DNA of 63,938 bases, the filler included, from Jimgerdemannia flammicorona (lineage: Eukaryota): the NCBI GenBank assembly GCA_003990765.1. It is 2 parts of 2 records of this genome, joined end to end, with 100 filler letters (N's around TTAATTAATTAA, not from the genome) between each part and the next. Parts side by side here need not be neighbours in the genome. Positions count along the whole stretch, not along the records: positions 32,043 to 63,938 come from RBNJ01000373.1; 1 more part is not named here. One strand, given 5' to 3'. Position numbers and translations under genes: made by a program. The notes under the pieces were generated by a model. The model was not told the origin of the DNA. It saw only the letters and a list, made by a program, of their open reading frames with translations, and searched no databases. Shown one piece after another: positions 3,100 through 58,628 of this stretch. The stretch's first letter is position 1. Every line of letters starts with the position of its first letter.

Positions 3100-3470
3100 G
3101 GCTTATTTATTTATTTATTTTATTTATCTATTCTATTTATCTCAATTATTAATCTTAAGTATCTATCTCAATTATCTATTATCTATCTTATTTATCTTAT
3201 TTATCTATCTATTCAGTTTATTTATTTTATTTATCTTAATTATCTATCTTAATTATCTATTATCAATATATCTTATCTATTTTATTTACATATCTATCTC
3301 ATCTATCTCATTTATATATTCATCTTATTCATTTATCTTATTTATCTATCTATCTCTATCTATCTATCTCTATCTATCTATCTTATTTATCTCTATCTCA
3401 ATTATCTATTTATCTCATTCATCTGTTTATCTTATCTATCTGTCTATTTTTATTATTTATCTCAATTATT
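3100..3470. repeat. Low-complexity (TATC/TTAT)n microsatellite-like tract at the start of an extremely AT-rich block extending to ~4360
   Basis: Directly visible repeats of tatc and ttat. Confidence 0.85.
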
Positions 3471-21629: not shown

Positions 21630-22148
21630 AACGATAGCGCACGATGTTGAAATAGAGGCTTACAGAAAAACAGCCCACAAAAATCAAGGGGATCAGGATG
21701 AGGCTCAACAGCGGCAAATTCTAAAGTGGGGCCCAGCCGAGCAGTTCTCAGATGGTAGGTTTCGCAACATCATAGCTGACCCCAATGTCTCTTATCCATC
21801 GCCACTCACACACAGCCTCTTTCAAATACAGTGTTTGAAAATATTCCCGACGTAGTCGAGGCTCTGTTCGACTACAATCCAACTGAGAACCAATCGGATC
21901 ACCTTCCCCTCAAGCGGGGACAGACGATCGATGTTGTCCGGGCCTTCCCCTCAGGCTGGTGGTACGGCGAGTGTGAGAGCAGACAGGGGCTTTTCCCTTC
22001 CAACTTCGTTGGCCCCTGCACAGAAGAGTCGCAATATTCGGAACCTAACATTCCCGATACGAAAGAGGCGCTGATCAACGTGCAGAATGACGGAAGGAGA
22101 TTGTGGTTCCCATCCATGGACTCGTTGCCCAATATTCCTAGAGATTAA
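17335..22148 (+). CDS. TRP-like 6-TM cation channel with beta-rich (WD40-like) N-terminus and C-terminal SH3 domain; 9 exons, ~1337 aa
   Basis: Exons 17335-18308, 18401-20093, 20178-20525, 20632-20688, 20783-21042, 21153-21241, 21368-21526, 21638-21754, 21832-22148. All introns are GT-AG, phases join, total 4014 nt with one open frame. Motifs: pre-S1 FLEAVVYQKWRAF, S4-S5 WFRLMMLLRVFKPIGIFVAVM, S5 FLIVLAMALLGFAQAL, S6 TNILLLNVLIALLNNVY, TRP-helix-like WLLLFVQIVADIEL...DWFPPYVYY, SH3 VEALFDY...HLPLKRGQTI...SGWWYG...GLFPSNFV. The WD40 call is weaker (RFALSSDGSRLAV, VRIW). Confidence 0.9.
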
Positions 22149-32192: not shown

Positions 32193-33606
32193 CTTCTGTC
32201 TTATAGTAGAGAGATGAGAATTGAGTAACTGATATATTTGTAAAGATATACTCCTTATCTTTATATTCTCAGATATTCAGAGATCTCTATAGTACTTATA
32301 GACTCTTCTCAAATAACTGTTCTTACTATCTAACTTATAATATATAGCAGCTATATTTGATATATCTGTTAAATATATAGAAGCAGTATATAGTACTAGT
32401 CAAAGCTAAGATAAGATAGTGAGCAGACAGATTTGAGACAAATGAGAGACTAGCTAGTAATTAGAGTAAAGAGAGTAGTAGAGATGAGAAGATAGTATAG
32501 AGAGAAGTAGTATGAAGAAGACATCATTAGGATAAGATAGAGTTTATAGGAGTCATATCTTTTCATTGATATGGATTTATAAATTAGAAATTTAATAATT
32601 AATTTATTTGCAATTTGTAACAAAATATTTATAATTTAATATATAGTTTATTATTCTGAATTCTACTAATATAGATAATAATTCCTCTATCAAATTCTTC
32701 TACTTCAAGCCCTAGATATGTCTGCAAGGTTAATTGTACTAGCTATGTTTAATATTAAGTATTGTGTGACTCTTTTAGTATAGTATGATAAATTTGAATC
32801 AGAGATTAATGATCTCTTATTAAGGCTATATACTTAGATCTGAGGCTAAGAAGATAGTCATTTATAGGGTTTATATGAAAGTAGTTAAAGAGATTTATAT
32901 TTATATATCAATATTCTTCAGTTAGTTGAAGATATTTATTTAGAGAGAAAAAAATACCTAGTTTAGGTTCTTAATTCTTTTATAGTCCTTTGACCTCTAT
33001 ATAAACAATTATTACACTTTGGTCAGTCCTATGCTCAAATCTGATAATGTTATAGGATATTGTAGAAATATATCATATATATTATATCTAAGACCACCAG
33101 CTACTAGTTAATTAGCTACTATAATACTAGGGTTATAATTCTCTACTTTTTTAAGATATCATCTTATAGGCCTTATCTATAGAGAAGAGAGATATGAAAA
33201 AGATATAAGTGTTGGCATTATTTTTTTATTTATTATAATTTTTAGAAGAGTATAAGAGGGTGAGATAATTCTAGTAAATATAAGATATATTTGAGAATAT
33301 ATATTTATACTTAATAATAATAGGGAGAGATTAGTATATTGAGTTTATTTCAGATTTAATATACTTTGTTCTTCTTTTCATCTCTGATCAGTACTTATAT
33401 CTCAATATCAAATATATATAAGAATTCTAGTCTACCAAATCTGACTTCCTCTAGTAACTCTATCTACTCAGATAACTGCTAAGTCTAAATGTGTCCATAG
33501 TTTTATACCATTCCAATATCATCTAAGACTAAATTAAAATACTATATAAGTATACCTAATTAATATTTCAGAGAAGTCAAAGGACTGAGATCTATATTAT
33601 TTATAT

Positions 33607-35159
33607 TGTTACATAGTGATCACTGAGTCCTTCAAATATGTCAGATTCTTTTCAAGATATATCTCTTAGACTAACCACAAGTTTGTTATAAGCAAGTTCT
33701 TATTGGAGTATCTTCCTAAGATGTTATAGTCCTCAAATTTCTTATCTTTAAATTGTCTTATTATCTCTTATATTGTTTGCATAGAATTGAGTATAAGTAA
33801 ACTGGAACTAGAACTGACTTTATTTCAAAGAAAATAAGAGGGGTATTTATACAAAAAATATAATTCAATAGTTGTTAATTATGTATAAAGCTAAATATAA
33901 ATTCCAATAATTAAATAAAATACTAGAATATTGAAAACTATGGTTATAAGTATAAATTCAAGTATCTGACAAATAGTTATACAAGTTCAGGATATCAGTA
34001 GATTTCAGTAGTATAGGAAAAAAATATCTGAAGCTTCAGGTGTTATAGAAAAAGAATGCTAGTAGAATTCAGTTATACAGAAAAAGAATACCAGAAGATT
34101 TTGTTGTTATCAAGAACTTAAAGCAGAATGTTCAGAACCATGAAGGCTTTATTTTCATCACTGCTGAAGGAAATGAGATCTGTGAACATTATGTCTATTT
34201 TGTATATTTTGTATATATTATACAGAATGATATTATCACTGATGACATCATTATGTTTAGCAGTAGTAGAAGCTCTCCAATCTATGACATTCTCTTTCAC
34301 AAAATAAGGAACAAATGTGGGGTCTTCAGAAGCTCTAATCTAGATGCTGGGGCCTTAGAATACTGAGATCAATCCTTATATAAATTGATCTGAATTATCC
34401 TAAAGAATGGGATACTAGAACTCTTCTACTTTATCACTATTAAGAGTGATAGTGGACTGGACTTCTGTGGCCACCATAGCCTCCAGTACATCAGTATAGC
34501 AGGCTGACAGTTTCTTGAAATCTGAGATTCTAGTGTACTCTAAGTTGGAGATTGACCATAGTATATACCTGAAGACCTGATAAATCTTCTTGATTGTTCT
34601 TATTTTATATGTATCTATGAGAGTGGTATCTTATATTTCTTAGAGACTGGCCTGAGAGAATTCTCATTAGAGGAGGTTCTCTATTTTATATTCCTGCCAT
34701 ATTCAGAGACATTCAGTAGTAATAGTGATCCTTGTTTCCATTTTATAGTAGTAGAGAATATAATGATAAGAGTCACTAGTATCCAGATTGAGACTAGGAG
34801 TCCATCTTGTCCAGATTCTCATGGCTCTTCTGATATCTTAGAACATCCTTTTCTAGACTGAGGGACCTTGGTAGTTCCTGGACCTTGAGGTTTAGTGAGC
34901 AGCAGGCATTTGTTTGTAGTAAGTCTTTGGATCTATTTCTGTGAGCTTTGTTTAGGTTGCTACTACTGCAGTTTCTTGATTCTTCTTTTATATTTTATAA
35001 GATATCTATCTATGGTCATGATGACTTATAGTTGGTCATCATTACTCATCTTATAGTCTGGGTGAGTCATGTCATATAATCTTCTGTACTCTGATCTGAT
35101 TACTTGTAAGAAAAGGCTGTCTCCTATATTAATGTCATCATTCTGAGATCACTATTACA
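33607..35159 (-). repeat. 3' LTR of Gypsy family 1
   Basis: TG...CA termini, direct repeat of 40832-42380, adjacent to the PPT. Confidence 0.93.
34118..34909 (-). pseudogene. Decayed 263-aa ORF encoded inside the LTR
   Basis: ATG at 34909 to TAA at 34118 is exactly 264 codons with no indel. Internal stops are TAA/TAG/TGA, and several are CAA or CAG in the sister LTR (41335-42130). Confidence 0.75.
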
Positions 35160-35202
35160 TCTTTCTCCTGAATAAGGATCTTCTCTTAAATATCCTTATT
35201 TA

Positions 35203-35499
35203 TTAGTCCAGTGCTGATTCCATAACCTCTATCAGAGAGTCAAAAAGTGATATTTATGGACTGGTATCTTCTTTATATATTTTGATATGATGGTTAAGGG
35301 TTGCTCCATTCATATAGAGCAAGAATCTAATTCTGATCTTGACCAATCAGTTGACAGTTCAAACTTCTCTAGCTTTGAAAGTTTCATGGATAAGTAGTTA
35401 CTAGTGCCATATCTCTTAGAAAATAGTCCAGACAGATTGCCTGCTGGTCACAGGACATGCTGTTATGATTTATGGACTCAGAACCTCATGGGTAATCAT
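35203..35499 (-). pseudogene. Decayed ~98-aa accessory ORF between integrase and the PPT
   Basis: MITHEVLSP*IITACPV...LIEVMESALD*, 99 codons in one frame. All internal stops are explicable as CAA/CAG/CGA to T. Confidence 0.55.
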
Positions 35500-38218
35500 T
35501 ATGTTTTACTTCTCTTATATAGGTTCATGGTACTTCTTGAGTCTGTTTCTATATATCATAATAGGCAGTATAGTTCCTGAGAGTTTTTTAAGCCAGAAGA
35601 TAGTTCTCTTGATATCTTGCATGTAGAAGGGTCTGTCTCATTTGGGCTCCAGTTTTTGTAACTATGAGACTTTTATTATATTTTAATACAATAGGACCTT
35701 TTCTCTGATTTGGATGGATTTTAGGGTCTTGTAATTATTTTCTGCCTTCTTTCTTATCAGTACTTGTGACTTGATGATATAATATTTAGTCTTCTTTCTG
35801 ATTTAGTATAGTCTCCAGATTTCTGAGTCAATCTATCTTCAAGTTAGGTCTAGATTTATGGCTGAGGTTCCATTGGAATCTTCTTCTCTGAAGAGCAGTT
35901 CTCTTGGAGTCAAGTGTGTACTATGTAACTATATATCTCATAGGACAGAGAGAGAAGTTGGGAGGTAGTTATCTCAATTGTCATATGTGTCTGAGATCTT
36001 TGCCAGAATATTCTTGAGAGTCTTATTAGTTCTCTATCTATCTATTTCCTTGAGGGTGGTATGCAGTGGTCTTGATATGCTGAATCTTATTTTTATGATA
36101 TATTATCTCATAGAATCTATTGACAAATTCTATACTATGGTCTGTTGTGATTTGTTTTGGTATCTTATAGTAGCAGATGATTTCTTGGTATAGAAAGTCA
36201 GCTATAGAGAGAGCATTGACTTCTTGTAATACTCCTGCTTCTATCCATTTAGTAAAGAGATCTATAATAACTATAATATAGCAGTTTTCTGATAGTATTA
36301 CTGGTAGTAGTCTAATGATATCTATTGCAATGTGGTAGAAGAGGATAGGCTCAATTCTTGATGACCCAAGTGCCTGATCTTACTGATCTTATTTCTGTTT
36401 TTGGTACTTGTCACATCTTTTGACAAATTGGCACAGATCTTCTTTCATCTAAGGTCACCATATGGTTCTTCTTACTTTGTTGTATGTGTTGGTTCCTTCT
36501 AGGTATCCTTGTTTATGTACTTTCTTCATTACTTGATACTTCTTATGTTTGGGTATTATAAGCTTTCCTTCTTTTCTGAGTATAGTATTGTCTAGTTAAA
36601 TTTTTTCTAAGTCTAGTTGATGATAGTGATAGTCTAGAGTTCAAGGTGGTTGGGCATCTTCTACTGCCCAAGATAGCTGATTATTCATAGTATATCTCCT
36701 TATTCATATTAAGTAGTCTTGATGGGAGTATTTTGAGATATTCTTAAGAGTGCATCAGCATCAGCATTGATTCTTTCTAAGTGGTACTTGACAGTATAGT
36801 TATACTTTTGCAGCCTGTAGATTCATCTGACATATATTTCCTTAGAGTTCAGTATGTGAAATAGCTAGGTGAGAGTAGAATGGTCTGTTTAAATAGAGAG
36901 ATATTTCATAACTAGGTAGTAGTAGATCTTGTCTACTACTCAAACTACTACTAGTATTTAAGCTTATATGTATGACTCATAGTTCTGTTCTGCTCTACAG
37001 ATATCTTAGCTTATATAGGAGATAACATATTTATGTTCATCTTTCTTCTGAGCTAGGACTGCTCTAAGTTCTATAGTACTTACATCTGTCTGCAGGATGA
37101 ACTCTAGATTTCAATCTGGTCTTCTGAGAATAGGTGTTTGGGTCAATCTAGTCTTGAGTTTATTGAAGGTTTCTTGACATTCCTTGGTCCATTCAAATTT
37201 GGTCTCCTTCTTCAGTAGCTTATAGATAGGTGCTGTAATGTTGGAGTATTCTTTGATGAATCTTCTATAGTAAGAGGCCAGTCTAAGGAAGACATAGACT
37301 TCTATAGTTATTTTGGGTCTTGGGGAGGCTGCAATAGTCTCAATTTTCATCGGATCTGTGTGAATTCTAGTCTGGTTGATAATGTGTCCTAGGTAGGTGA
37401 TTTCCTGAGCTGCAAACTTATATTTCTTAGTCTTGATGTAGAGGCCATGCTCTTTGAGCTTCTTGAGAGCCAGCTGTATATAGTTGATATGTTCCCATGC
37501 AGTGTTGCTGAAGATGATCACATTATCAATATAGACAAAGAGCTATTTTCCAATCTCATTGCTGAAGACTCTGTTCATTATTTACTAAAAACTTACTGGA
37601 GTATTATATATTCCAAATGGCATTCACATAGACATAGGTGGTATTAGGTGTGATGAAGGTTGATTTCTCACTAGTATCTTGAGTGAGACCAATTTAATGG
37701 AAGCCTGAGAACAGATCTAAGATAGTGTAGTATTTGGCTTTACTTTCAAGGGTAGTAAGGATTTTTTAAATATTTGGTAAGAGCTGCCTATCCTTCTTAG
37801 TAATTGTATTGAGCTTTCTATAATTAATGCAGAGTCTTGGGGCAAACTCTCCAGGCTTGCTTCCTTTCTTTGAGGTAAGAACAATGGGTGAAGCCCCAGG
37901 GCTGATAGCTTGCTTATTGATTTCAGCTTCTTCTATTTCCTTGAGTTCTGCTTGCAGCCATTCACTGTAGACTGGTGGTATGGGTCTGGCTTTCTGGTAG
38001 ATGGGCTTAGTATTGCTGGTGTCAACTTTATGATAGTCCTTGGGTTCTTGATTGTAGATGTCTCTAAAGTCTGTAGCAAGTACTTGATTCTGGTACAGAA
38101 TCTTGAGAAGTTGTTCTTCTAGAGAAAAGTTTTCTCCAATGGTATATGTGTACTTATTCTGATTCTTTTTTTTCTTGTGCTCAAGTTTGGTAATCTTGAT
38201 AGCAGTATAGGCTTCTCT

Positions 38219-38610
38219 TCAAGTAGATCCAAAGCCTTGTTCTCCTCTCTTAGTCTTGATAAGTTCAATGGCTTCAGTGATTTTAGGCTTCTTGACTTTA
38301 TGAATCAGCATCTGGCCAATCCTGTTATACTTCTGAACTTTGAATGGAGTGGTGGGGTTGTGATTTCTGACTATGAGGAAGATCTCACCAGTATAATCAG
38401 AGTCAATTACTCCTCCTGTAACTGAGATTTTGCTTTTGGCCAGACTGCTCCTGGTCTTGATAATTCTGACATAGTTCTCTAGCAATCTAACTTCAAGTTG
38501 AGTGGTGGTCTGTGGTTTGAGGATAGCATTTTGAATGCTGGCAAGATCCATTCCTATGGCTCCTTTAGTCTTGTATTCTGGGATCTTGGCTTTAGAGTGA
38601 AACTTTTTAT
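38219..38610 (-). pseudogene. dut: Retrotransposon-encoded dUTPase domain between protease and RT
   Basis: All five dUTPase motifs: GAIGMDL, TRSSLA, GGVIDSDYTGEI, RIGQMLI, KRGEQGFGST. Confidence 0.93.
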
Positions 38611-40831
38611 CCTTGAGAGTGATGTCTAGTTCTTGTTCCTTCTCATCATCACTATCAGCTTGAAGCTCTGGGGGCTGGTCATCTTCTTCAGCTTACTTTT
38701 TTACTTTAACAGCTTCTTGTTTATGCCTTTATTGATAGATTTTTCTGACTTCACTGATGTAGGACCAGTAGTCATTCAGATGTTCAGAGCAGTATATTCT
38801 AGTATCATGGGGGCATCTTTCTTGAGGGGCATAGCCATTGATGATCTTATTGTACCACTGCTCATCTGTAAGCTTGGGTGTCTTGCTCTTATTCTTATAT
38901 ACTGAGTGCATGAAGACTTCTGTGTCCTCTTTATCTCCTTTCTCTATATCTGATAGTACTCCTTTATAGACATTAATAGAGACTCCTACCTTTCTTTCTC
39001 TATAGTTGATCTATATCTTCTGGGCATTGAGGTCAATGATAGCCTTGGCCTTATGAAGTCATTGGTTGTCAATAAGGATGTCATAGTTAATGGTACTTGT
39101 AACAATCATATCTACTGAGATAGTAGCTTCTCCAATCTTGATGGAGACTTCTCAGATCTTGTCTAGAAGGGTAGCTTATGTACCATCTTCTGTAACATAG
39201 ACTATTTTGATAGACTCTTCAATGTTCTAGCCTAGGCAGTTAATTGTCTTCTTACTTATGAGGTATCCTCCAGCACTAGTATCAATGATGGCATCAAAGA
39301 TACAATCTTCAATCTGACATAAAGTATAGGCTGATGTCTTGTACTGGTATTTAGATTCTTTTCTCAAGTCTTTTTAATCATCTTCTTATGCATTGTGAAC
39401 TTCTATAATCCTGTGCTCTTGGTTCTTAATAGTGGTTGCAAGTCTTACTCTCAACCACTATCTGAAGGGAAAGACTTTAGCTAGTTGTCCAAAAGTAGCA
39501 TTGATCTTCTGTTTCTTGAGGTCTTTGTAGATATCATACTGATAGATCTTGATCTTATATAGCTTCTGTTCTTTCTTGCTTTTACTTTCTCCTAAGACTG
39601 GAGTGGTGTCTTTAATGATTTGGTAGGTAGCTTCATCTAACTCCATATCTTGATCAATCTCCTTAAGTTAGGTCTTGCTTTGAATAGTAACAGCTGAGGT
39701 CTTCATTGGTCTTCCAACTGACTTGCTGTTGCCCTTCTTATCATAGAGCTTGGATTGAGTTCTGGTACTTTCAGTAATAGAGTAGAATTTGGACTTCTCA
39801 TAGTATTCTTCATCATCAGTATCACCAATCTCCTCAATGATCACTATATTGGTTTGTTCTCTAGTTCTAGTAGTATTGCTTAATTGGACATTGTGTCTTG
39901 TTTCAGTCATACAACTCTTTACATAGTGGCCTTCTTCTCTACATCTGAAGTATATAATATTGCATTTTCTATAGTAATTGTAAATCTCTGTACTGGCCTC
40001 CTATTAGTGCTTTAGACTTCTCTAATAACATCACTAAGGTATATAGTCATCTCAGCAAACTACTTAGTGAGTTCCTCCACTAGATCAGCTTTGGCTACCT
40101 TGGGAGTAGGTGGGGATAGTTATCTGATTATGACTGTGGTAAGTATAATACTAGTTGCCTTTTGTGGCTCTATCTTGATACTAGTTATTTTCTCTATTGA
40201 GTGGTTGGCAGAGTGTCTGGCAGTCTAATATCTCTATGCAAAGACCATTTTCTGATCAAGGATCAGAGTAGCTGGGGTAGACTAGATTGTTAGGGCAATT
40301 TCAGAGTGAACTTCTTAAGGAAGATTGAATCAGCTATTTGTTTCTTAAGGGCATCATCATAGTCAGCTAAGACAATCTAGTGGCAGATTCAGGTGTAGAA
40401 TGAGGGGGGATCTTCACTGAGTCTCTAGTAGATAGTATTGAGTAGATCCTTGAGAGCTTGCTTGATCTCTTCAGTATAGTATGTAGTTCTGAGGAAGGTC
40501 TTCATATTGACAAGTTTGGCTGCACCAGCATTAGTAATAGTGGCTATATTAAACTTATCTCTGGCAGATCCTCTGAGGCTCACAGGTAGAAGGGCCAATT
40601 GTGCATCCATATAAGAGCTCATATAGTGGCAAATTGTTCAAAGTCTTCAATAAAGATCAGGATTGACTTTTCAGCAATATATCTACAGAATGTGGGGAGA
40701 TATATTTCTATCTTATCTTGAATTCTTACAGGAGTGACTCTTGTAGTCAGTGTAGTTATTGTGGTAGTTGTTCATTTTTCAGTTTGAAAGTGAGGGATTC
40801 ATCTTAAATTACCAGCCAATGGATACTAAGT

Positions 40832-42380
40832 TATCACATAGTAGTCACTAAGTCATTCAAATATATCAGATTCTCTTAAAGGTATATCTTTTAGACTAAC
40901 CACAAGTTTGTTATAAGTAAGTCCTTATTGAAGTACCTTCCCAAGGTTTTATAGTCCTCAAACTTCTTATCTTTAAATTGTCTTATTATCTCTTAGATTG
41001 CTTGTATAGAATTGAGTGTAAGTGAACTAGAACTGACTTTATTTCAAAGAAAATAAGAGGGATATTTATATAAAAAATATAATTCAATAGTTGCTAAGTT
41101 ATAAAGCTAAATATAAATTTCAATAACTAAATAAAATACTGGAACACAGAAAACTATAGTTGTAAGTACAAATTCAAATATCTGTACAAATGATTGTACA
41201 AGTTCAGAATGTCAGTAGATTTTGGTAATATAGAAAAAGAGTGTCTGAAGATTTAGATGTTACAGAAAAAAGATATTGATAGAATTCAGTTATACAGAAA
41301 AAGGAGGCTAGAAAATTTTGGTGTTACCAAGAACTTATAGCAGAATGTTCAGAACTATGGAGACTTTATCTTTATTACTGCTAAAGGAAATGAGATCAAT
41401 GAATTTTTCATCTATTTTGTGTGTTTTGTATATGTCATGTGGGATGATATCATTGCTGATGATGTCATCATATTCAGTAATGGTGGAAGCTCTTCAATCT
41501 ATAACATTCTCTTCTACAAAATAAGGAACAAATGTGGGATCTTTGGGAGGTCTAATCTAAATACTGGAGCCTTGAAATGCTGAGATCAATCTTTGCATAA
41601 ATTGATCTGAATTATCCTGAAGGATGGGATATGAGAATTCTTCTACTTCATCACTATTGAGGGTGATGGTGGAATGGGCTTCTGTGGCCACCATAGCCTC
41701 CAGTATATTAGTATAGTGAGCTAACAGTTTCTTGAAGTCTGAGATTCTAGTATACTCTAAGTTGGAGATTGACTATAGTATATGCCTGAAGACCTGATGA
41801 ATCTTCTTAGCTGTACTTATTTTATATATATCTATGGGAGTAGTATCTTGTATTTCTTGGAGACTAGTCTGAGGGAATTTCTGATAGAGGAGATTTTCTA
41901 TTTCATATTCCTGTTACATCTAGAGGTATGTATTCAGTAGCAATAGTAATCCTTGTTTCCATTTTATAGTAGTAGAGAATATAATGATAAGGGTGACTAG
42001 TATCCAGGTTAAGGTTAGGAGTCCTTCTTGTATGGATTCTCATGGCTCTTCTGATATCTTAGAACATCCTTTTCTAGACTGAGGGGCCTTGGTGGTTTTT
42101 GGATCTTGAGGTTTGGCAAGCAGTAGGCATTTGTTTGTGGTAAGTCTTTGGAACTATTTTTGTGAGCTTTGTTTAGATTGCTGCTACTGCAGTTTCTTAA
42201 TCCTTCTTTTATATTCCTCAAGATATCTGTCTATAGATACAATAACTTATAGTTAGTCATTATTACTCATCTTGTAGCCTGGGTGAGTTATGCTATATAA
42301 TCTTCTATACTTCAATCTGGTAGCTTGTAAGAAAAGACTGTCTTCTGTATTGATATCATCATTTTGAGATCACTATTACA
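40832..42380 (-). repeat. 5' LTR of Gypsy family 1
   Basis: Direct repeat of 33607-35159. On minus it is followed by TAGTATCC (decayed TGG-type PBS) and a gag ATG at ~40775. Confidence 0.93.
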
Positions 42381-42976
42381 ATATTTATAAAGCTTGAAAA
42401 TCATTATAATTTAATAAGAATCTTTTATTATTATAGGTATTCTAATTAAATATTTTCCTCTTTAATATATTTACTTTTCTAATTATACTATTTATTCACA
42501 ATAATTCTAGATTACCTTACTTCTATCTTCTGATATATCACAAATTAACTAATAACAAAGATAATAATAATAAGCCTGATATAGTGATACTAATCCATAT
42601 CAAGAGTAAATCTGCAGCTATTCAGGACTACTGATATCTGAGTGATAGACATACTCAGATGATAATAAGAAACAGATTTTTGATAACTGCTATATATTTA
42701 GAAATAAGTGACTTGTACTCAGTATAGACAGCTAATTTAGAGATTCAGATTACTATATAAGAAGAAGAAGTAGATAAATCTAACAGATATAAGTATAAAA
42801 AAGAATAGTTTTGATGAGGGTCTGTCATGTATGGAAAAGGAAAAGGAGGGTTAAAGTATATCTAGTTTGGCAGAGAGAAGAGGAGGCTAGATTAGAAAAA
42901 GAGTAGTATTCTGGACATAGCTTGAGCTGGAGTTAGAGGTGAGTCAGCTGGGTTAACTGATAATAATGTGTAGAAG

Positions 42977-45904: not shown

Positions 45905-47736
45905 TGTTAAAATATCTTGGTTATAACAACTTGATTATATAGTGGTTATATAGTAGTGTGGTCTGACTATGTCATTATATAAGTATTATCAATACATATA
46001 AAAGTATATAAGTTAGTATTAATAAATAATATCTCTCTTTCTACTCTTTCAAGTATTCTACAACAAAAGGTTATAAGTCTTGCTAGCAAAAGTAGATAAC
46101 AAATATACCTCTCTTATATATATACTATACTATACTATAATATTGATCAATATTAGTAATGCAAGCAGTATGCTAAGTTTAAGTAGTATAAGCAGAATGA
46201 GACCTAAAATGGGTACTAGTAGTATAAGTATATAATAGACACATCTATAGCAGTACTAAAGACAATAAAGAGAATGATTTCTGTCTTTATTGATAAAGAA
46301 TATACCATATAGATATACTATATAAAGAACCCCTTAGAAGAATGTAGTTAGAAGATTATTGGAAGCCACAGATATAAGTAATGATATACAAAGCTGTGAA
46401 GGATCACAGAGCACTAAGAGAGATTATGTTCACTCTTTCAAATATATAAATAAAACTTGTCATCAATTCTATAATAGTGAACAAAGTCTGAGAGATCTTA
46501 TATAATCACTACTAGTAGATATCTATATTAAAAAGATTCTATCTAAAAGTATAACTATTTAATTTCTAAATAAATTTCTAAAAGAGTATCCAGAACTATA
46601 CCAACTATATTAATGATCTGCAAAATCTAGTGAACTCTCTTTCTATGATAACAGATCTCATCAAGGATGAAGACAAGGTTCTGGTTCTTATACATAATAT
46701 TCCCAAGATATTCAATATAGTTATCACTGCTATGAGAGAATCTGACAAACTATCAGACTATAATTATATTTTCATGAGCCTTTTAAATAAGAAATCAAGA
46801 TTGAGTGATAATGATAATGATGATAGTGATGAGAATGCTTTCTATAAAGTACATAGATGAGACAAAGGTAAGCTGAGCAAAGGATGAGACCAAGGCCAGT
46901 AATATGAGAAATTTGATAGTAAATACTTCTATTGTAATAAGTGTAAACATCATGAGTAAGATTGCAACCATAAGAAAAAGAAAAAGAGTGATCAAAGTGA
47001 GCAATATAGAAAATAGTAAGTGAATGTTATAGATAACAACAGTAATAATGAAAATAGTGAAGGTAATAGAGACTTGTTTTTTACAGAAGCAGTAATCTAT
47101 CTATATACAAAAGGAGTTATAGGAATAAAAAATATTGACATAAGCACTAGCATGAATGTAAGCTATATACCAAGTGTTTATACATATAGCAAAGAAGTCT
47201 GGCTTATGGATTCTGGAACAATATTGTCTATAATAGCTTACTATAAGTAGTTCTTTATGTATGAGAAGTTTGAGTACCCCATATCTATCAAACTAGATAA
47301 CAATAATGTTATTTACACTCAAGGCAAAGGAAATGTTGATATATATCTATATAAGAAAGTTAATAAACCCTCAGACATCTTTGTAGACATACTATATACT
47401 CTAGATATTACCAAGAACCTCTTCTCAATAGCTCAGATGATGGCTCAAGGAGATAAAGAAGTAAATATATGACTAAATGGTATAATAATAACCAATCTAA
47501 AGTACAATAAGGAGTTAATATATATATTAAAAAAGAGAAACCTATATGCAATTAATAGTATACTGAGTAGTATATTATTCAAATATTCTACTATAACTGA
47601 AGAGGATCTCTGATATATATAGTATAAATACTTAGAACACATCAGCAAGATGAGCTTGGAATAGATGATAAGGAGTAAATCTATATATGGCTTACCAAAC
47701 TGTATATTACTGAACTTTAGCTTTTGTATTAGATAT
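45905..47736 (+). mobile_element. 5' part of a decayed Ty1/Copia element, interrupted by a Gypsy insertion
   Basis: Short LTR TGTT...AACA (45905-46065) followed by PBS-like GGTTATAAG. Gag-like IKDEDKVLVLIHNIP, knuckle YFYCNKCKHHE*DC, protease WLMDSGT, TQGKGNV...KNLFSIAQM, and a pre-integrase HHCC remnant (YKYLEHISKMSL...YGLP...FCIRY) cut at 47736. Confidence 0.85.
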
Positions 47737-50700
47737 TGTAATGGACCAAAATATACCATCCGAATTATAACTTAGCCAGATGATGTGAACCATCAGCATA
47801 CTTACTCAGCATGATGTGACTTCTAGTATATCATAGCTACCCATGCCTGCCACACTTATAATTAGCCAAGACACCAGATCAGGAGTGTTTATCTGTATCC
47901 TGTGGACACACTTATGTCCTGTGGACATACTTATATCCTGTGGACACACTTATGTCCTGTGGACACACTCATGTCCTGCAGACACACTCATATCCTGTGG
48001 ACACACCTGTACCCAGAAGACACACTCAAACATTACCAGAAGTAGTAAATCTATAGTTAGCTGCATAGCAACCAGATAGCAACCAATCTGTATAAATTAC
48101 CTCAGAGATAAGAGTAAATAAACCTCAGTCCAAAATACAAACACCAAAGAAGCCTCTAAAGATTGAGCATTGGTCTTCTTTCCACTCTGGTCCACTTTCT
48201 GATACAAAGAAGAGTTTGTTATGTTTTTGGTTCACTTGCCAGATAAGCCTGAAGATTTGCCACCTAAGTTCAAGGAGAACTTCGCCACCTTTTGAGTAAT
48301 CTGCCATTTAAGGAATAAGCTGCCATTTCTAAGTTATCTGCATTCCCAGAAAGCCACCTTGCACAAGCCAGTTTCTGATGCAACTTCGCAGTAATCTGTC
48401 ATGCAAACAAAGCCAGTCTTTAACACAACTTTGCCAAGAGACCCTTTCCAAGCTGTCAGTTATATTTCCCAAAGAATTCACTATCTATTGTTCATATCTC
48501 CAGTTGAAGCCAATTCAGGAGAATCTACACCATTGTATTTTCAGAAGAACCTGATTTGGAAGAACTCATGCCATTTGAGTAGTATTCCTAGTTGTCTGAA
48601 TTATCCACACCATCCAGAGTTATTCATTGTTCCCAGTGAGCCCGGCATAGAGAATCTGCCACCAGTATTATTCTCAGTAAGAAGAATCTATGCCATACAA
48701 TTCCCAGTGAGCCAAATCAAGTTATCCATCAGATCATCAGAACATCCTGCATAAGGAACCCACCACACTACACAAAGATCGCCCACTCCCAAGAAGGAGA
48801 ACTGCTAAATTGCCAGACTGTCATGCACAAGATTGTCACACTACACAGAAATCACCTGCTACTCAAGAAGGAAACTGCTTGTACTATATATAAAATCCTA
48901 CTATTCCCAGTTGACTCAAGAAGGAAAGATACAAATCGCCACTATACTTAGAGAACTATCCCAATAAGGAAACCACTCACAGATATCCAGCTTGACTATT
49001 ATACCACTAAACACCAAGGACCTCAGGAATCTTAGAACATTTTGTTGCTTTTTGACATAGTAACTGAGGGCTCAAGCCAAACTACATCAATCCCCAACCT
49101 TGTAATTTGCCTCCATTGAGCCAGGCACATTATATCTGGGGGCTCAACTGGGAAGATTTTTTTTTTAAAATCAATGTGACATTTCAGCTCACAAGAACCC
49201 ACAGTCAAACTGGATACATTTGATACAACACCAACCTCTGCTACTACAAGAGAACCAGTTATCACCAGCATCTGGACAGGAAGAGAAGTAATCACTTCAA
49301 GACTTGCCAATTACCCAATATCAGAAGGATCCCAACTAGAGCCAGAAGGCAGTACAGCTTGAAATCTCCAACCAGATCAACCAGACAATACAGGCAGCCC
49401 TGCTGGAGATTTTGGAGAACTTGCACAAGAACTAGAAGATCTTATTACATGGACCCAATACTTTACAGCCAGACACCCCACACCAGTCTCACCAATCTTG
49501 TCAATAGAACCCCTACCACAACCCCTTGCAGAACCAGAAGTAGCTCCTACAAGAATACCTAGGCCTATTCCACTCCATCCAAGGACCAGAACACCATCTT
49601 CAAGATACCCAAGCACCCCCATCTCCAGTGACAGTTCAGAAAGTGAATCAGAACCGGAATCAGAAGAAAGTGATGATGAAATGGCCACCTCATTGCCAAC
49701 TTTTGCAGGATATCCAGAAGAAGACCTCAGAGAATTTCTTAATGGGATTGAAGGAATCGTAGTCTTGAGAAATCTCTCAGATGAAAGAAAAATTGCCATC
49801 TACAAAGCTCAGCTCAGGGAACCAGCCAGAGGAATTTTCTATTAAACAGCAAACAACTGAGATTCAGAATTAGCAAGACAGATACAAGCAGCAATATCTG
49901 ATGAGCTAGAATATGAGGCCATGGTCCACTGGCTCATTGAAAAATATGCAGGAAATGAAACCTGCTACAAGGCTCAAGAATCTATCGTAGGATGAAGATG
50001 AATCTTGGAGAATCACCTAGAGCCGTCTTCATAAGAATCCAGAAGAGAATGTATATTGCTGGGTTCAATACCACCAACCAAGACATCATAGGTCCAATGA
50101 TCTTTATGAATAGATTTCCACCAAATATTGCCCAGCATATCTGTACTCTAGGTATCAGAAGATCCAAAGAGCAAGTAGATGCAGCCTAAGAATTCTTTGA
50201 TATCAGACAAGGAACTACCTGGAGTGACCATGGTAAGAAAGATAATAAGGAAGAAATCCTAGTCAAAGCTCTACAAAGACTCCTTCAAGGACAAGAGAAA
50301 TCCAAAGAAAGAAGACCAGCTAAGAAAGGAAAGAAGAATAGAAGCAAAATCTAAGACCTCAGCTCCAAGTTGGATCAATTGGTTGGACAGATTGAAAAAC
50401 TCACCATATATAAAAATCGAAGCTACTAAGATAACAGAGGATACCCACCACAGAGGAGCCAAGGTTATCCATCAAGAGATAACAGGAACTACCAGCAAGA
50501 GGAAAGAAGATACTCTGCCTGAAATAGAGCCCAAGTCCAATGCTTCTACTGTGAATAATTTGGACACTATACTACTGAATGTGACAACAAAAGAAGTGAC
50601 TGAAGGGACTCAGAACTACCAAACTGAAGGAATGACACTCAGTACAAGAAGACTGAAGCCCATCCTATTAAGGATTTCAAAGAGACAAGCAACAGTGAAG

Positions 50701-52860
50701 ACTACAGTGACCTATACTTATACTCTACCAAAGTCACTACCTAAAAGACAGTCTATTCAGCAGAGAAAAGGAAGAGACTTATTGGAAGGCCATCCAGGAA
50801 TATCAGCAGAAGAATCATTTAAGAAGAAGATGAAGAACATGAAGAAGAATAAGTAGAAATACCTCCCCAGACTCTCTCACCTTTTGTTCTCAAGATAAAT
50901 GAGTTGCTACAAGAGGATGGAGAAATAGAACAAAAAGAATGAGAACCCACTGCCCCAAAGCCCAAGAAGAAGTATACTCTGAAGACTATGCCCAGAGACA
51001 TCTATAATGAAGTCTGACAAAAAATTCAAGAAGCCAAGATAGAAGTCCCTCTTCTGCAGTTCCTGCAACTGATACCAGCTGGAGTCTGAAATAAATTGCT
51101 ATAAACTACTAGGTCTAGCACTGGCTGAGTTCCAATCCCACAATAAGAGCCAGCTTTCATTTCTATCTAAGTTGCAGAAAGACTTGTCAGCACCTACCTA
51201 CATGGAGATATTAGAGAACAAAAGGTGAAAATCCTCATAGATACAAGAGCAGCTGTCTGTATCATTGTTAAACAATTTCTGGATACCCTCTAATGGCCCA
51301 TTGATGGCCCATTGATGGACCATCCAATCTCAGCATCATAGTAACAGATGGAGCCTAAACTCAACCCCTTGGTGAAGTATGAAACATCACCATTTCTCTT
51401 GGACACATTCTGTTCTCTATCCTGAAAGCTGTTATCACTGAAGCTATCACTTATAGTATAATCCTAGACATCAACTGGATGAAGAAAATGAATGCAGTTG
51501 TTGATATCAGTCAATAAGTACTCAAGTTTGATTACTGAGGCAAGAAGTACAGAGTTAAGATGACCAGCTATGAGCAATTAAAGAAGAAGAAGAAGATCAC
51601 TATCTAGGAGAAATACACCAGTAGTGAAGAATCTACTACAGAAGAGAAGGAGGAATCTTAAGATAGAAATGATCCCAGACTCAATCCTCAGATCAATCTA
51701 GTAGACAACAGACCAGAGGATAATGTATAGGCCAAGAACACTAACTCCATCACCATTGGAGCCATTGCAGGAGAAATCAAAGGATGCTCCACCTGCCTCA
51801 AAAGACATAAGTGTCTCAAGCACTTCTCCAAGATCATTGGGATAAGGAATTCGCCTGGCATAGCCTGCCCAGAGTGCAGAAAGAAGAAGAAGAAATACAG
51901 ACATGTTCCAGAAACACCTGCAGCCAAAGCTGCAGAAGTATAGGCAATTTGGGGTCAAGAATCATCTGAGTAAGAAGAAGTTTCTGACCAAGAAGTTCCT
52001 GAACAAGAAGCACCTGAAGAAGAAGAGGTCTCTAAACTCATTCTCTGGAATGACCCTCACTGGATACCATCTGAGAATAATGACCTTTGGATTATGGAAG
52101 AAGGACCCAGCACAATCTCCATTATTCCCAAGAAAGAAACATACCAAGAAAGAGCTTTTCAGCTAGGAAGATGTCTACACCAAATGATCTTCTACTCTCC
52201 CTAAGACTACTGCTACTAATGTCATCTACAGGATCAATAGGAAAGACAGAGGCCCCAAAGACCAGAACCCCCAAATATAGTTGTATAGTTAACTACTTTT
52301 TTAGAAGTTACCACCAGGTTGTAAAGCTGATTCAGAGGACAAGGTCTCTTTACCTGAACATTAATATACTGTCTATCCACTCTTCCTACAACTTATGATG
52401 AAGATGGATACTGATTCCCAAGACAATAAGAGGTCAACAATCAAGAATAGCATTTCTGAGCAATGGAATATTGCAATTATAGAAGACATCCAGACTGCTG
52501 AGACTGCAAGCATCAGAAGATTCACCTCAGTCATGATATTGCAATTCACACTTTAAAGAGAGGAGAAAACAGAGATCAGATCCAAAAAAGCCAAACCAAG
52601 AAGCCAGGAAGAAGAATCCTCAAGATCTATGATTTAGGAGAAGACATCCTAGCCCTTATCAGACATGCAATCCACTAAGGATGGGCAGAAGATGCCACCA
52701 ACTTCATAGAAGCCCTAGACCCCACAGGAAGAAGAGAAATTAATTATCTCTAAGATCCCTCTACTGTAGCTAGATGGCTAAACCTCAACCTTAGAGCCTA
52801 GAGGCTCTCTGCTAGTAGAGCTTCAGTACTAGGACAGCCTGAACTTAGTAAGAATATTGC

Positions 52861-53270
52861 CCAGTATGCTCTGCTGCATCTCAAGGCCAAACCCTCAACC
52901 AAAGTACACCCAGAAGATATAGGATATGATCTTTACAGTCTGGAGGATGAATCCATAAAGCCTGGAAAAACATTTATGATCAGAACTGGACTAGCTATAT
53001 AGTCACTCTAAGGAACTTACATTCAACTGACCTCAAGGTCTGGACTTATCAGACAAGGAATAACTATAGAAGGAGGAACCATTGACCTAGGATATATAGC
53101 TGAAATCAAGGTCATCCTACACAATAGAAGTTCAGAATAATACTGAATCATCAGAGGACAGAAGATTACCCAAGCAGTCTTTATGAAGGTTAAGACTCCA
53201 CAATTATAAAATATCTCTGAACTGACTGAAGGAATGAGACAAGCTAATGGATTTAGAAGTTCAGATAAGA
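52861..53270 (+). pseudogene. dut: dUTPase domain of Gypsy family 2
   Basis: HPEDIGYDL, IRTGLAI, TSRSGL, GGTIDLGYIAEIKV, GQKITQAVF, RQANGFRSS, with internal stops. Confidence 0.9.
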
Positions 53271-56229
53271 AGAAAGTATATCTCCTTTAAGTCAACCACC
53301 TTAAGAGGAATATTCCTCAGCAAGTATACTACCAATCAGTCAAACTGCACAAGAATCTCATCCTGGAGGCTGGAGAACAAACCACCTTCGAAATCTTTGC
53401 ACCACTTGACCCCAGAAATCTTTTCTTTGAACCCAATGAAGATATCTCACATCTGGACATAGAAGGACACACATTCTCTGACAAGATAAATCCAGTATAT
53501 TCCCAAGCAACCAACCAAAGTTGAGAAACCATCATCTTGCCAAAAGAAAGCATCATAGAATATCTGGTGCCTTTTCTCAACCAAACCTATAGAGAAGTTT
53601 ATGAACTAAACTTATCAGAAAATGGCAAAAGATCCCAGAAGAAAGGAAAGGCCCCTCTGTGACCCAGGAGACAGTGAAGCCTTCTACCAATATTGGAGAA
53701 GAATTGACACCCCAGTAATGACAACAACTAGTAGAACTCCTCAACAAATACCAAGATATCTTCACTACTGATTATGGCAACCTGCTATATAATCCGTTAT
53801 ATCACTATAGCATAAATATAGGAAATATAACACTCATTTGGCAGAAACCTTACAGAATACCCCATTACTTAAAAACATTCAAAAAGGAGCACATTCAAGA
53901 AATATTAGATAATAGAGTCATCCAACTGTCTACCAGCCCCTGGGCCAGCTCTATACTTATTATATCAAAGAAAGGAGGATGGAGACTTTGTATAGACTAC
54001 AGGAAACTCAATTCAGTCACTGAAAAAGATGCCTATCCTTTGCCAAGAATTGATGACCTTTTGGATCAGTTACAAGATGCCAGATACTTCAGCAGTATGG
54101 ATCTTTTCACAGAATTCCATGAGATTCCCATAAACCCTAAGGACATTCAGAAAACAGTCTTTCTTGCACTAGAAAAACTGTTTGAATATCTCTGAATACC
54201 CTTTAGACTTAGCAATACACCTCTTATCTTCCAGAGGATGATGAATTTACTCTATACCCCCTTGATCCACTACTGCCTGATTGTATATATGGATGATTCC
54301 AATATCTATTTAGCAAATTTTAAATAATATCTATACTATTTAGAGGAATTCTTCAATCTCACCTACAAGAACCACCTGAGACTCAATGCAAAAAAATGCT
54401 ACTTTAAGAAACAGAAACTTGAATTCCTTGGATTCATAGTTTTAAAAGAAGGAACCCATACATATCTCAAGAAAATCAAGGAGATCAACAATTGGCCAGT
54501 ATCCAAGACCCCAAGGGAAACATTATCATTCTTGATACTAGTATCTTACTATAGAATATTTATCAAGGACTTTGCTCAAATCTCTGCCCTAATTCAGATC
54601 TTTCTCAAGAAAGGAGTACCTTACAAATAGACAGAATCACAAAAGAAAGCCTTCAAAGAACTTAAGAACTGTATGACCACAGCATCAATCCTTGTGTACC
54701 CCAATCTACAGAAGCCATTCATCTTATATACAGATATTTCCAAAGATGGCCTAGGAGCAGTTCTTGCCTAAGAAGGACCTGACCAATAGTATCATATGAT
54801 AGCTTATGCAAACCAAGCTACCAATCAGCAGTAGATGAACTATGGTAGCACCAAACTAGAATACCTTACAGTTATATGAGTGGTCACTCTGTTCAAGCAT
54901 TACCTCATTGGAAAAAGATTTACCTTAATCACAGACCATACAGCCCTCAAATGGCTATTCAACTATAAGGAACCTATCAGAATCCTAGTCTGCTAGATCC
55001 TTATCCTTTAAGATTACAAAATCACCATCATCCACAAAGCAGGGAAAGCCCATAACAATGTTGATATACTTTTCTGCCAGCTCCAACGAACCAGAAGAAG
55101 AGTGTCCCAAGAAACTACACCCTAAAGGACACTCCTCAGACCATCAAGGCACAAGAAGATCTTATTCAAAAAAAATACCAGAAAGCTTACTAAGAATAAG
55201 AAAACATAGAAGAAAAGTTGTGAACAATATACCAACATTGGCCCAATCTTAGAACACAAGTCTGGGACATCCTCAAGAAATGTGACATCTACCAGAAATA
55301 CCAAGGAAGGAAGAACTACCAAGTACCACTGCAACCAATCATACCACCAGACAACATCTTTTGGAGATAGAAAGTAGATATAATTGGACCCTTATCAGTT
55401 ATACTAAGAAGAAACAAATACATCCTTAATATCTGACAAAGTGGCCCAAGGCTTTCCCAATAGAAATCACAAATGCCTTAACTATTGTAGGCCTTCTCTA
55501 TAGACTCACCCTCAGATATAGACACTCAGAAGAACTTATCTCTGACTGAGGTACAGAATTCATCAATAACATAATTACCAGTTATACCTAAATTCACAAG
55601 ATTCACCTCAAATAGACTATATTATACCACTCTTAGACCAATGGTATGATAGAAAGAATGAGCCAGACCATTAAGAAAGAACTTGCCCAAGTCAATCCTA
55701 TTAACTGGGACCTCTGCTTACCTGAGATCTTATGGGAAATTCAGAACACCCCTATAGCCTCTATCAAACAAAAGTCATTTGAAATGATGTTTACTAAGAG
55801 AACTAGAACTACTGATCATAAGGATCTCAGGAACCTCCTCAAGAAGGCAGAATAGTTATATAATCAAGCCCAAGCTCAGATTATCAAAGCTCAAGAAAGA
55901 CAAAAGAAGTACTATAACCAGAAACAGAAGAATTAGGAGATCAAGATTAGAGATCAAGTACTAGTGTAGAGAAGTATGATTGAACTGAATTTTGCCACCA
56001 AACTAGAGCCCAAATGGGAAGGATCTTATCTTGTACACAATATCAAAGAAACCAGTATCTATTTAAGAAGTATAGATGGACAGACCCTCAGGACACTAGT
56101 ATATATCAATCATCTCAAGATATATCTATCTCCATACCATAAACTAGAGAGTTGACAACTGCCTTCAGACTCTTGTCCTTAGCTCATTTCAATCACTACT
56201 AGTTCCCCTACCCTAATTCCAAGAAGTCA

Positions 56230-56590
56230 ATGGAAATGCTATCCAGAAAATTCAGATTCATTAAGAGAATCTTGTCCTGACCAGATGATTGTTACAGGTC
56301 CATCAACTTCAGGCCCATTATGCAATAGAGAATAATTACAGAACCTCCTAGTTCTGGAACAAATATATGTATATTAGAAACACCACAGAACTATCAAGAA
56401 GAGATGTCACCACTACAGATAGGCTCTACACTCTTTATAAATGAAACCTCACAGCTCTGATACAAGCACAATTCTCCTGGTATAATGTATGAGGAATGAA
56501 GCTAGCCACCTACCTAAGCATCATCAATACTGTCAAAATCCTGTTCCCAGAAGAATAAAAAGAACTTGGAATAGAGCAGACATAGTACAG
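56230..56590 (+). pseudogene. Decayed accessory ORF between integrase and the PPT of family 2
   Basis: One frame reads GNAIQKIQIH*ENLVLTR*LLQVHQL...TTDRLYTLYK*NLTALIQAQFSWYNV*GMKLATYLSII, with stops explicable by single transitions. Confidence 0.45.
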
Positions 56591-58628
56591 ATGACAAAGA
56601 TGATAGAATAGGTATTGATACAGAAGATGCTTATCCATACTGGGATGATGACTAAAGGATAGTCTGAGGACAGACCATCCTTTAGTGGGGGCTGATGTGA
56701 CAAACCAAAATGTACCACCTAAATTATAACTTAGACAGATGACATGAGCAATTAGTAACTTAGCCAGATGACTTGAACACATAGCATAGTAACCAGACAC
56801 AGTAACCATTGCTGTGGAAAACTATATAAATAGCCAGACTACCAGATAAGGTATATTTATACAGGACCTATATACCTGTGCTGGATCTGCACAACTTGCC
56901 ATAAGTAGCAAATCTATAGTTAGCCATATAGTAACCAGATAGCAACAACAATGTATAAAATACCCCAGAGACAAGAGTGAATAAACCTCAGTCCAAATTG
57001 AAGTACAAACCAAAGAAGCCTCTAAAGATTGAGCATTGGTCTCCTTATTCCCACTTTGGTCTACTTTCTGATAGAAGAGTCTGAATTGAATCCAAAGTAA
57101 AAGTCAAGTCTGCATACTACACTTCAAGAGGAACTCTACAGCCACTGCTTGGAGATTGTGAGCAAAGCATTCCTTTCCACTCCAGTCCACTTTCCAATAC
57201 AAAGAGTTTGTTATGTTTTTGGTTTGCTTGCCAGATAAGCCTGAAGAATCTGAGTTTGCCACCTAAGTTCAAGGAAGAACTTCACCACCTTTTGAGTAAT
57301 CTGCCACTTAAGGAATAAGCTGCCATTTCCAAGTTATCCGCATTCCCAGAGAGCCCTTAAGGAACCTTACCACAAGCCAGTCTCTTGATGCAACTTCGCA
57401 GTGATCTGTTCCTGCAAACAAAGCCAGTCTTTGATATAACTTGCCAAGAACCCGAGTTATTATTCCCAGAAGCCCGCCAATTCAGGAAGAATCCACAACA
57501 TCCAAGTTATCCACGACATCTGAGATTATCTGAGCTATCCGAGTTATTGAATTATCTGTCTTCCATGCTATCTGAGTTATTATTTTGTTCCCAGTGAGCC
57601 CGATTCAGAGAATCTGCTGCCAGCATAATTCCCAGTGAGCCGATTCAGAAGAATCCACGCCATCTGCTATTCCCAGAAGAACTGCTGCCTTTGAAGAGCT
57701 TGGTATCAGTCAGAATGTGCAGAATTTAAAGTATGAAGATAAGAAAGAAGTCATCTCTTTGATTACAAAAACTCTTCTGATCTGAAAATAACAACCTACT
57801 CTTGACCAGATAGTTTTGAGATTCAGTATTGGTAACTTCATCAATAAGTTCATCTATTAAACTCAAATATTCTAACCAATTGTACAATTTTTTTACTCTT
57901 TAGTTCTCTATAGTGAGAAAGATGTCACTAATACAATTAATTGGCCATCATGCTCAGCTTCTGGAATAATGATTGGCATTGTATTCAGCTTTTCAAGAAT
58001 GTTCTATACAGATGATCTACCAATGATTCTTAACTTCTTAGTTGGTTGGTACAGTTCTGGAGTAGTATATAAAATATTCTAATTCAAAAATGATTGCAGC
58101 TTAATTCACCATTTTGGAACAACTAGCTCATATTGGCCAGTGGCTTATACCTGTAAACTAATGATGGAAATTAGAGATAACTATGAAATAGAAAAATAGC
58201 TTACAGATAGCTTAGTTGCTACATTTAATAAGAGAAGTATCATGACACTTCTCTGATTCTTTATATTTCTCCTATGTAATTCTCTATCTTTGCTCCTGTG
58301 ATTTTTTACATCTTGTATTTTCTGTTTCTATAATTTTTTAAATCTTGAATTTTCTGCTACTGCAATTTTTTACATCTTACATTTTCTGCTTCTGCAATTT
58401 TTTACATCCTGTGTTTTTTTTTACCTCTCTGCTTATACAGTTGTAGTATATAGTCCTTTTCTTCTACCTCTGCAATTTTTTACATCTTGACTGATGTGAT
58501 TCTTTTGCATCTCTGTCTTACAGTTCTTTGTATCTCTACTATACAATTTTGCACTTTTTGTATCTACATTCATTTGTACCTCCTAAGCTATTATTTGATC
58601 ATGAACTGATAATTATAATAATATATAT

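Follow-up and report, generated by a model that had tools for sequence, protein, structure and literature searches.

The subject of this analysis is a stretch of 63,938 nt from Jimgerdemannia flammicorona (GenBank assembly GCA_003990765.1), referred to here as the window, which consists of two parts joined by 100 filler letters. Within the second part (positions 32,043 to 63,938, from RBNJ01000373.1) there lies, on the minus strand, a Ty3/Gypsy retrotransposon bounded by long terminal repeats (LTRs). The 3′ LTR (33607-35159, minus strand) is 1553 nt long and the 5′ LTR (40832-42380, minus strand) is 1549 nt long, and both contain, at LTR positions 251-1042 of 1553, an interrupted protein-coding frame in sense orientation relative to the element. 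That frame is very probably the dead remnant of a genuine and conserved gene of approximately 260-290 codons, one which was located wholly inside the LTR. Because of such a location, each full element would hold two copies of this gene, i.e., one per LTR, and a solo LTR would hold one.

In the 3′ LTR the frame occupies 34118-34909 on the minus strand, that is, as read from 34909 to 34118. In translation it begins with MPAAH, ends with NILL-stop, and consists of 263 codons plus stop, with 13 internal stops and no frameshift. The sister copy, as found in the 5′ LTR, occupies 41335-42130 (minus strand, read from 42130 to 41335) and has seven internal stops along with a frameshifting insertion of 4 nt at approximately 41930-41933, which is an ATAC-ATAC duplication. 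As a duplication this insertion is the derived state, and the indel-free state seen in the 3′ LTR therefore is the older one. Of the 13 stops in the 3′ LTR, nine correspond to sense codons in the sister copy, six or seven of which read CAA or CAG, and the other four (codons 19, 24, 69 and 190) are common to both copies. These are the features that the original prediction had described, i.e., an indel-free frame of 264 codons with about 13 internal stops, a sister frame with a 4-nt insertion, and the restoration there of several stops as CAA or CAG, and translation and LTR alignment confirm all three.

Intact homologues of this frame exist. The two window copies, aligned with X at stops, were used as a profile for searching 1,835,955,588 representative proteins, of which five matched at E<=1e-3 (3.9e-99, 2.0e-36, 1.3e-34, 4.5e-27 and 2.9e-4). 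A subsequent profile of the family itself, compared with 6234 candidates, matched 12 of them at E<=1e-3 and, with cluster members included, the family amounts to 15 proteins of 87-342 aa. One of these, P0008 (271 aa, environmental), aligns over its residues 1-271 to positions 34909 to 34121 as a single tblastn high-scoring pair (61.6% identity, E 1.5e-99). All 15 match both LTR copies and no other window site by tblastn, with the hits in the 5′ LTR split at the 4-nt insertion (41933 and 41925-41931). The homologues thus match the frame from ATG to stop, as is expected of a once-open, LTR-borne protein gene of the kind proposed, hence one present in both LTRs. The start codon that had been proposed for the frame likewise is backed by a shared N-terminus: P0008 starts with MPAARQTSRSRN..., and the more distant P0003, P0004 and L001 (a metagenome contig, considered below) start with MPALR or MPPIR, i.e., with an MP...R motif. 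Open frames of 200-340 codons have been kept at 27-47% identity to the member P0001, and conserved blocks can be recognised over the length of the protein (W.EYEI, AKK.HQ.FRH.P, LEA.VA.EA.S, W.P.LQDNPDQ.LQGL, F.GP.I, DP..PY, I.WR, DLI.F and P.VLNFL).

The family is undescribed, having no name, Pfam domain or recognisable fold. Its members are encoded on metagenome contigs (JGI or ENA; 600-4848 nt), are labelled ‘hypothetical protein’ or unnamed and, among the 17 family records listed, none is from annotated genome sources (NCBI, UniRef). That all 17 are unnamed metagenome predictions may be because genes residing in LTRs are masked from annotation. Pfam searches with six frames of both LTRs returned chance-level rows only, and with the 15 family members no family was found at E<=1 beyond such rows. 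There was no family match in PHROGs and none among prokaryote genome contigs, no match among viral contigs with alignment A3, P0004 or P0008, and, using the family profile, there were zero matches to PDB at E<=10. In the ESM Atlas all scores stayed below 0.9, and structural matches that reach a template-modelling (TM) score of 0.5 were absent. Comparison by hhalign of the family profile with the element's own gag found no relation, and a search of metagenome contigs returned a single locus, which is L001.

The manner in which the two copies decayed can be read against P0008. At the sites of the 13 stops in the 3′ LTR that protein has Gln nine times, Trp three times and Cys once, and at the seven in the 5′ LTR it has Gln or Trp. 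It had been claimed that every stop is a C-to-T product. This is so for 12 of the 13, each derived from a Gln or Trp codon by one C>T or G>A step, but not for codon 81, where P0008 has Cys and the sister LTR has TAT; this one requires a transversion in addition. Among the residue changes relative to P0008, E>K is the most frequent with 11, followed by P>S/L with 9, R>Y with 5, T>I with 4 and H>Y with 3; transitions account for each of them. C>T/G>A hypermutation put an end to both copies once the element had inserted, leaving 13 and 7 premature stops, along with the one duplication of 4 nt.

L001 is the only homologue that is available as DNA. It is 1535 nt in length and carries an intact open reading frame (ORF) of 291 codons at 376-1251, the encoded protein being 42% identical. 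By transition-tolerant local alignment only LTR positions 232-847 can be aligned with L001, there against 355-977, which is to say that 19 nt preceding the ATG plus the ORF are alignable and the remaining LTR is not. In a protein-guided codon alignment of the window frame with L001, mismatches number 146, 100 and 172 at the first, second and third codon positions (p=1.4e-9). This is the codon-position bias which the original prediction had asked about, with third positions differing most. Considering only transversions, which hypermutation does not produce, the corresponding numbers are 79, 53 and 94 (p=3e-4). As a separate observation, L001 also contains a 33-nt motif (GTCAGGCGGAAC...CAGAACA...) that occurs twice, at 170-202 and 1481-1513, with a spacing of 1311 nt and an identity of 82% between the two; one lies upstream of the TATA-like motif described next and the other near the contig end.

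The LTR gene seems, as judged from sequence, to have possessed its own TATA-type promoter, starting from approximately 150 nt into the LTR. A TATA-like motif, GATATC-N9-ATAAAAGAA, is found at 34983-35006 (minus strand) in the 3′ LTR and at 42204-42227 (minus strand) in the 5′ LTR, ending in both cases 73 nt before the ATG; in L001 the equivalent motif (GATATC-N9/10-ATAAAAGAA) ends 70 nt before the ATG. The pattern, which was derived from these same sequences, occurs at no other window site. Directly 5′ of the ATG there is in addition a 19-nt leader. In the 5′ LTR this leader (42131-42149, minus strand) is identical to L001 355-373, and in the 3′ LTR (34910-34928, minus strand) it carries one C>T change. 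With motif and leader both conserved between elements whose proteins are 42% identical, each LTR looks like a self-contained transcription unit, one that would need no splicing from genomic RNA. An exact match to the leader in IMG/VR (L002) was set aside as chance, since the contig that holds it is from a phage and has genes for HNH and integrase proteins, and a scan of the LTR for bacterial-type promoters and terminators is irrelevant to a eukaryote. Set aside as well was a second, shorter and helical-looking frame that had been suggested nearer to the LTR start: This frame contains stops and overlaps the TATA-like motif, and the portion of the LTR in which it is located has no alignable similarity to L001.

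Where the gene sits relative to the functional subdivisions of the LTR depends upon where genomic RNA begins. If the TATA-like motif is the element's only promoter, then the ORF may lie in R/U5 (the repeated and unique 5′ portions of the LTR), and genomic RNA would have it as its first cistron. If instead genomic RNA starts further downstream, then the ORF may be a nested gene in U3 (the unique 3′ portion) which uses the LTR poly(A) signal. A retroviral version of the latter would have the element promoter at a downstream TATAAATA/AATAAA pair and the protein made mainly from the 3′ LTR copy, via spliced or read-through RNA, in the manner of sag of mouse mammary tumour virus or lentiviral nef, which is the analogy that the original prediction had drawn. 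Consistent with this, both LTR copies keep, as read from their alignment, TATAAATA at approximately LTR position 1314 followed approximately 29 nt later by AATAAA (~1343), i.e., within the last third of the LTR, and U3 usually is the longest LTR part. We nonetheless consider such retroviral expression to be rather unlikely, since the conserved TATA-like motif and leader directly upstream of the ATG point to a dedicated start site, the TATAAATA/AATAAA pair is without counterpart in L001, and direct reading of the window copies reveals no evident splice acceptor before the ATG.

The LTRs of the element appear as direct repeats in blastn (33611-35159 versus 40836-42380; 84.8% identity over 1555 aligned columns), and four further terminal bases are homologous between the two through transitions, giving the full LTR borders. 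Alignment counts 200 transitions, 25 transversions and 4 indels between them. The LTRs start with TGTAAT and finish with GTAACA, so that the 3′ LTR, as delimited by blastn of repeats, alignment and junctions, reads TG...CA; in the 5′ LTR the terminal CA now is TA following a C>T change. Next to the 3′ LTR is a polypurine tract, AGGAGAAAGA (35160-35169, minus strand), which abuts that LTR as read from the junction. A putative 4-bp target-site duplication, ATAT, is present at 42381-42384 with its partner at 33603-33606, though this is weak as the flanks are AT-rich. No clear tRNA-complementary primer-binding site was recognised at the 5′ LTR junction, and no third copy of the element was found within the window.

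Between the LTRs is the internal gag-pol region (35160-40831, minus strand), which has decayed through stops and frame changes. Its three frames were translated with X at stops prior to Pfam searching, with domain coordinates converted from residue ranges. This yielded, in Gypsy order and all on the minus strand, protease (RVP_2, 39005-39319, E 0.002), dUTPase (38222-38593, E 4e-21), reverse transcriptase (RVT_1, 37378-37837, E 1.7e-13), RNase H (RT_RNaseH_2, 36802-37191, E 3.7e-21) and integrase (36053-36556; Integrase_H2C2 E 9.6e-10, rve E 7.7e-8). Upstream of these Pfam-matched domains, in gag, is a zinc-knuckle-like YX2CX4HX4C. None of the three frames, translated in this way, gave a chromodomain match at E<=0.01, though the region is heavily decayed. 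The closest pol relatives are at most 43% identical, coming from plants, algae, fungi and animals. Domain order and repeat lengths bear out the prior description of a Gypsy element with LTRs of about 1.55 kb.

Other retroelements are present in the same part of the window. A second and different dUTPase-bearing Gypsy family is present on the plus strand at 48000-63938, as two copies located approximately 10.94 kb apart (49163-52876 versus 60100-63829, 85-91% identity), with matches to reverse transcriptase, RNase H and dUTPase, with LTR-like repeats near 48006-48450, 56869-57355 and 58820-59273, and without a homologue of the LTR gene. A decayed Copia-type fragment is found at approximately 46400-47500 on the plus strand (Retrotran_gag_2, 2.9e-9; Pol_BBD, 1.3e-10), within a very AT-rich block with a GC content of 0.26-0.30.

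That second Gypsy family bears on the question of how generally the gene is associated with LTRs. It could be that a single Gypsy lineage picked up a passenger, that is, a gene of cellular origin or from another mobile element, such that this is no general accessory gene. The genomic context of the gene is known for the window copies only, by tblastn the ORF is lacking from the second Gypsy family, and no fusion of it with gag or pol turned up. The last of these is weak evidence, longer fused forms having been absent among 7999 candidates. Capture nevertheless seems to us improbable. The family's listed records, all 17 of them metagenome contigs of 0.6-4.8 kb from JGI or ENA, resemble repeat-derived, annotation-masked sequence more than they do a conserved gene of cells; the promoter motif and leader accompany the ORF in a homologue that is just 42% identical; and the length of L001 (1535 nt) is near to that of the LTR.

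It also could be asked whether the frame exists at all, other than as a by-product of AT-rich, transition-decayed sequence. Raw stops over the same 792 nt number 14 in this frame and 12, 25, 9, 24 and 30 in the other five. Correcting for transitions, with C or G taken wherever the two LTR copies differ by transition, leaves 6 stops in this frame and 11, 22, 9, 19 and 22 in the others. A transition-corrected consensus had been put forward as a check, and this one, based upon two LTR copies, favours the frame (from 14 to 6 stops) with little rescue of the rest. Codon usage was evaluated using a log-odds score for which the decayed pol of the same element supplied 1007 training codons, in a frame with 26 stops (2.6%) versus 7.6% out of frame. 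The score was positive for this frame alone (in bits per codon, +0.08 in the 3′ LTR and, past the frameshift, +0.20 in the 5′ LTR), and negative in the other five frames whether stop codons were left out or not. A chance frame therefore can be dismissed with near certainty: even though the raw sequence is more open in two other frames (9 and 12 stops versus 14), and even though a single transition in some sense codon can give rise to any of the stop codons, such that an argument from C>T changes is by itself unfalsifiable, there exist full-length, intact homologues (E 1e-99 to 1e-27), and both rescue by the sister copy and pol-like codon usage are seen in this frame only. Separately, the codon-aligned antisense frame is unusually open, with 9 stops at 34118-34909 on the plus strand and a 149-aa ORF in L001 (922-1371, minus strand); this is taken as a by-product of sense-strand codon choice, i.e., of few TTA, CTA and TCA codons.

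The decay of these elements is by C>T hypermutation of repeats. Repeat-induced point mutation (RIP) gives rise to C>T and G>A changes in repeated DNA with a preference for CpA, resulting in a high TpA/ApT and a low (CpA+TpG)/(ApC+GpT). Here TpA/ApT is 0.96-0.99 and (CpA+TpG)/(ApC+GpT) is 1.22, with the latter not RIP-like. The share of C that is variable between the LTRs is 53% at CpC, 44% at CpA and 8% at CpT; changes that are as frequent at CpC as this, as well as at CpA, are unusual for classical RIP. No CpG is left in the LTRs, where 12 TG/CA pairs mark former CpGs. Over the window, CpG dinucleotides number 0-9 per 2 kb in the transposon stretches 1-4000 and 32000-58000 (observed/expected, o/e, of ~0) and 20-25 per 2 kb at 60000-63938 (o/e ~0.2), while the genic stretches have an o/e of 0.8-1.3. 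Such a confinement of CpG loss to transposon stretches equally fits RIP or methylation-driven deamination. Two further observations concern other stretches of the window. The stretch 8000-10000 has a TpA o/e of 0.30, an AT skew of -0.5, and long overlapping open frames on both strands (8586-9671 on the plus strand, 8712-10013 on the minus strand, and others), and probably is low-complexity or repeat-rich coding sequence. At 21780-22145 (plus strand) is an SH3-domain exon (SH3_1, 6e-13), the sole Pfam match among 54 genic open frames.

As for what the protein may have done, its layout is suggestive. The first 45 residues have a net charge of +8 in P0008 and of +4 in P0001 and L001. The last 70 residues have a net charge of about -17, are 27-31% Asp or Glu, and close with two hydrophobic motifs that are conserved, DLI(S/T)F and P.VLNFLL. 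AlphaFold2 (AF2) models of P0008 and P0009, run using a 15-row alignment, display helices over the first two thirds, then a small hairpin, then an unstructured tail, at a mean predicted local distance difference test (pLDDT) of 48 and 53, respectively. A basic head, helical core and acidic, disordered tail studded with hydrophobic residues are typical of transcription activators. The protein might, by this resemblance, have been a trans-acting nuclear regulator with an acidic activation domain, one that would boost or protect LTR transcription, though identifying it as such is doubtful. Of the two roles first suggested for it, transactivator or anti-silencing factor, an activator is the one with which its charge layout agrees. 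Foldseek found no match in PDB or BFVD at E<=0.001, and a wide VIA-align search reached a best Z of 4.2, with no fold match.

Joining this layout with the putative promoter leads to a broader proposal, which we put forward tentatively as possible rather than probable. Each LTR would be an autonomous gene, possessing promoter, ORF and poly(A) signal, with full copies and solo LTRs alike expressing a nuclear factor that acts in trans upon the entire element family, whether as a transactivator or to counter silencing. Were that true, then this would represent a ‘complex retrotransposon’ strategy that is undescribed for LTR retrotransposons, and the gene would be multiplying via solo LTRs even after loss of the coding core. 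A gene internal to an LTR in any case would be duplicated with each insertion, would outlast LTR-LTR recombination, and would be masked from genome annotation. The family supplies a conserved candidate for a regulator that is encoded by a transposon and acts either on that transposon's promoter or on silencing by the host. The approach is reusable as well, since a profile of decayed copies compared with very large protein sets can recover genes from hypermutated repeats.

Certain points weigh against these readings and should be kept in view in judging the claim of a conserved gene, now dead, within the LTR. Residence in an LTR is seen in this single element, the homologue contigs are of 600-4848 nt with flanks that are not visible, and L001 has no terminal inverted repeat over its 1535 nt. 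Raw stop counts by themselves do not distinguish the frame from the other five. With regard to selection, protein-guided alignment favours codon positions 1 and 2 in the comparison with L001, and the two LTR copies differ by 46, 25 and 52 at the three codon positions without selection. With regard to the promoter, the TATA-like pattern was searched in its own source sequences, and strings resembling TATA or AATAAA occur frequently where decayed DNA is rich in AT. With regard to function, both AF2 models are poor, which makes any statement about the fold weak, and the fold and family searches returned no match backing any function.

Accessory genes define the ‘complex’ retroviruses, and LTR retrotransposons usually are credited with gag and pol only, though a few have extra ORFs between their LTRs. 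A full-text literature search, covering the main text of mostly non-subscription journals, turned up no account of any LTR retrotransposon with a conserved gene that is wholly internal to its LTR. The ‘LTR ORF’ of one paper (PMC12037069) refers to polyprotein ORFs, and the available portion of a paper on the crapaud LTR (PMC10787394) describes no LTR gene.

Among fungal Gypsy elements, a dUTPase between protease and reverse transcriptase is described, in the part of the source available, for PosPlaTy3-5 of Postia placenta, with dUTPase elements also in Phanerochaete and Tuber; a figure legend there indicates as well that some of the elements have an ‘add. ORF’ without assigned function (PMC2864245). 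The position of the dUTPase is as seen here, making a fungal host likely. Those elements have a chromodomain, for which no match at E<=0.01 was obtained here, and the same available part describes no LTR-internal gene for them. The Boty-like (BcGypsy1) Gypsy elements of Botrytis cinerea have an additional gene, brtn, according to the accessible portion of a preprint (bioRxiv 10.1101/2021.04.13.439636). To the extent of that portion, the likeness is of an extra gene in a fungal Gypsy element, one that is without assigned function and was overlooked by annotation. Reportedly, however, Zhao et al. place brtn in antisense orientation between the 5′ LTR and gag, that is, outside of the LTR.

Regarding possible function, some LTR elements encode small accessory proteins that work on their own RNA or promoter. 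Foamy-virus Tas is a retroelement transactivator with an acidic C-terminal activation region. CERV of the C. elegans element Cer1 is, going by the available part of its description, a small accessory protein of an LTR element (PMC10309623). The LTR protein is not homologous to either, and the resemblance is one of charge distribution only.

In terms of location, the closest parallels are retroviral. Lentiviral nef and foamy-virus bet are genes that overlap U3. The sag gene of mouse mammary tumour virus (MMTV) is, as presented in the available portion of the source, a superantigen ORF located in the 3′ LTR (PMC2118998). As with sag, nef and bet, what is found here is a coding frame that is in or overlaps an LTR and that is duplicated with that LTR. 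It differs from them in having no sequence relation (no Pfam family for the 15 members and no PDB sequence match at E<=10) and in that its host is a Ty3/Gypsy element without env. It differs also in possessing a TATA-like motif just upstream of the ORF, such that expression of this gene, in contrast to those of retroviruses, may not have needed splicing.

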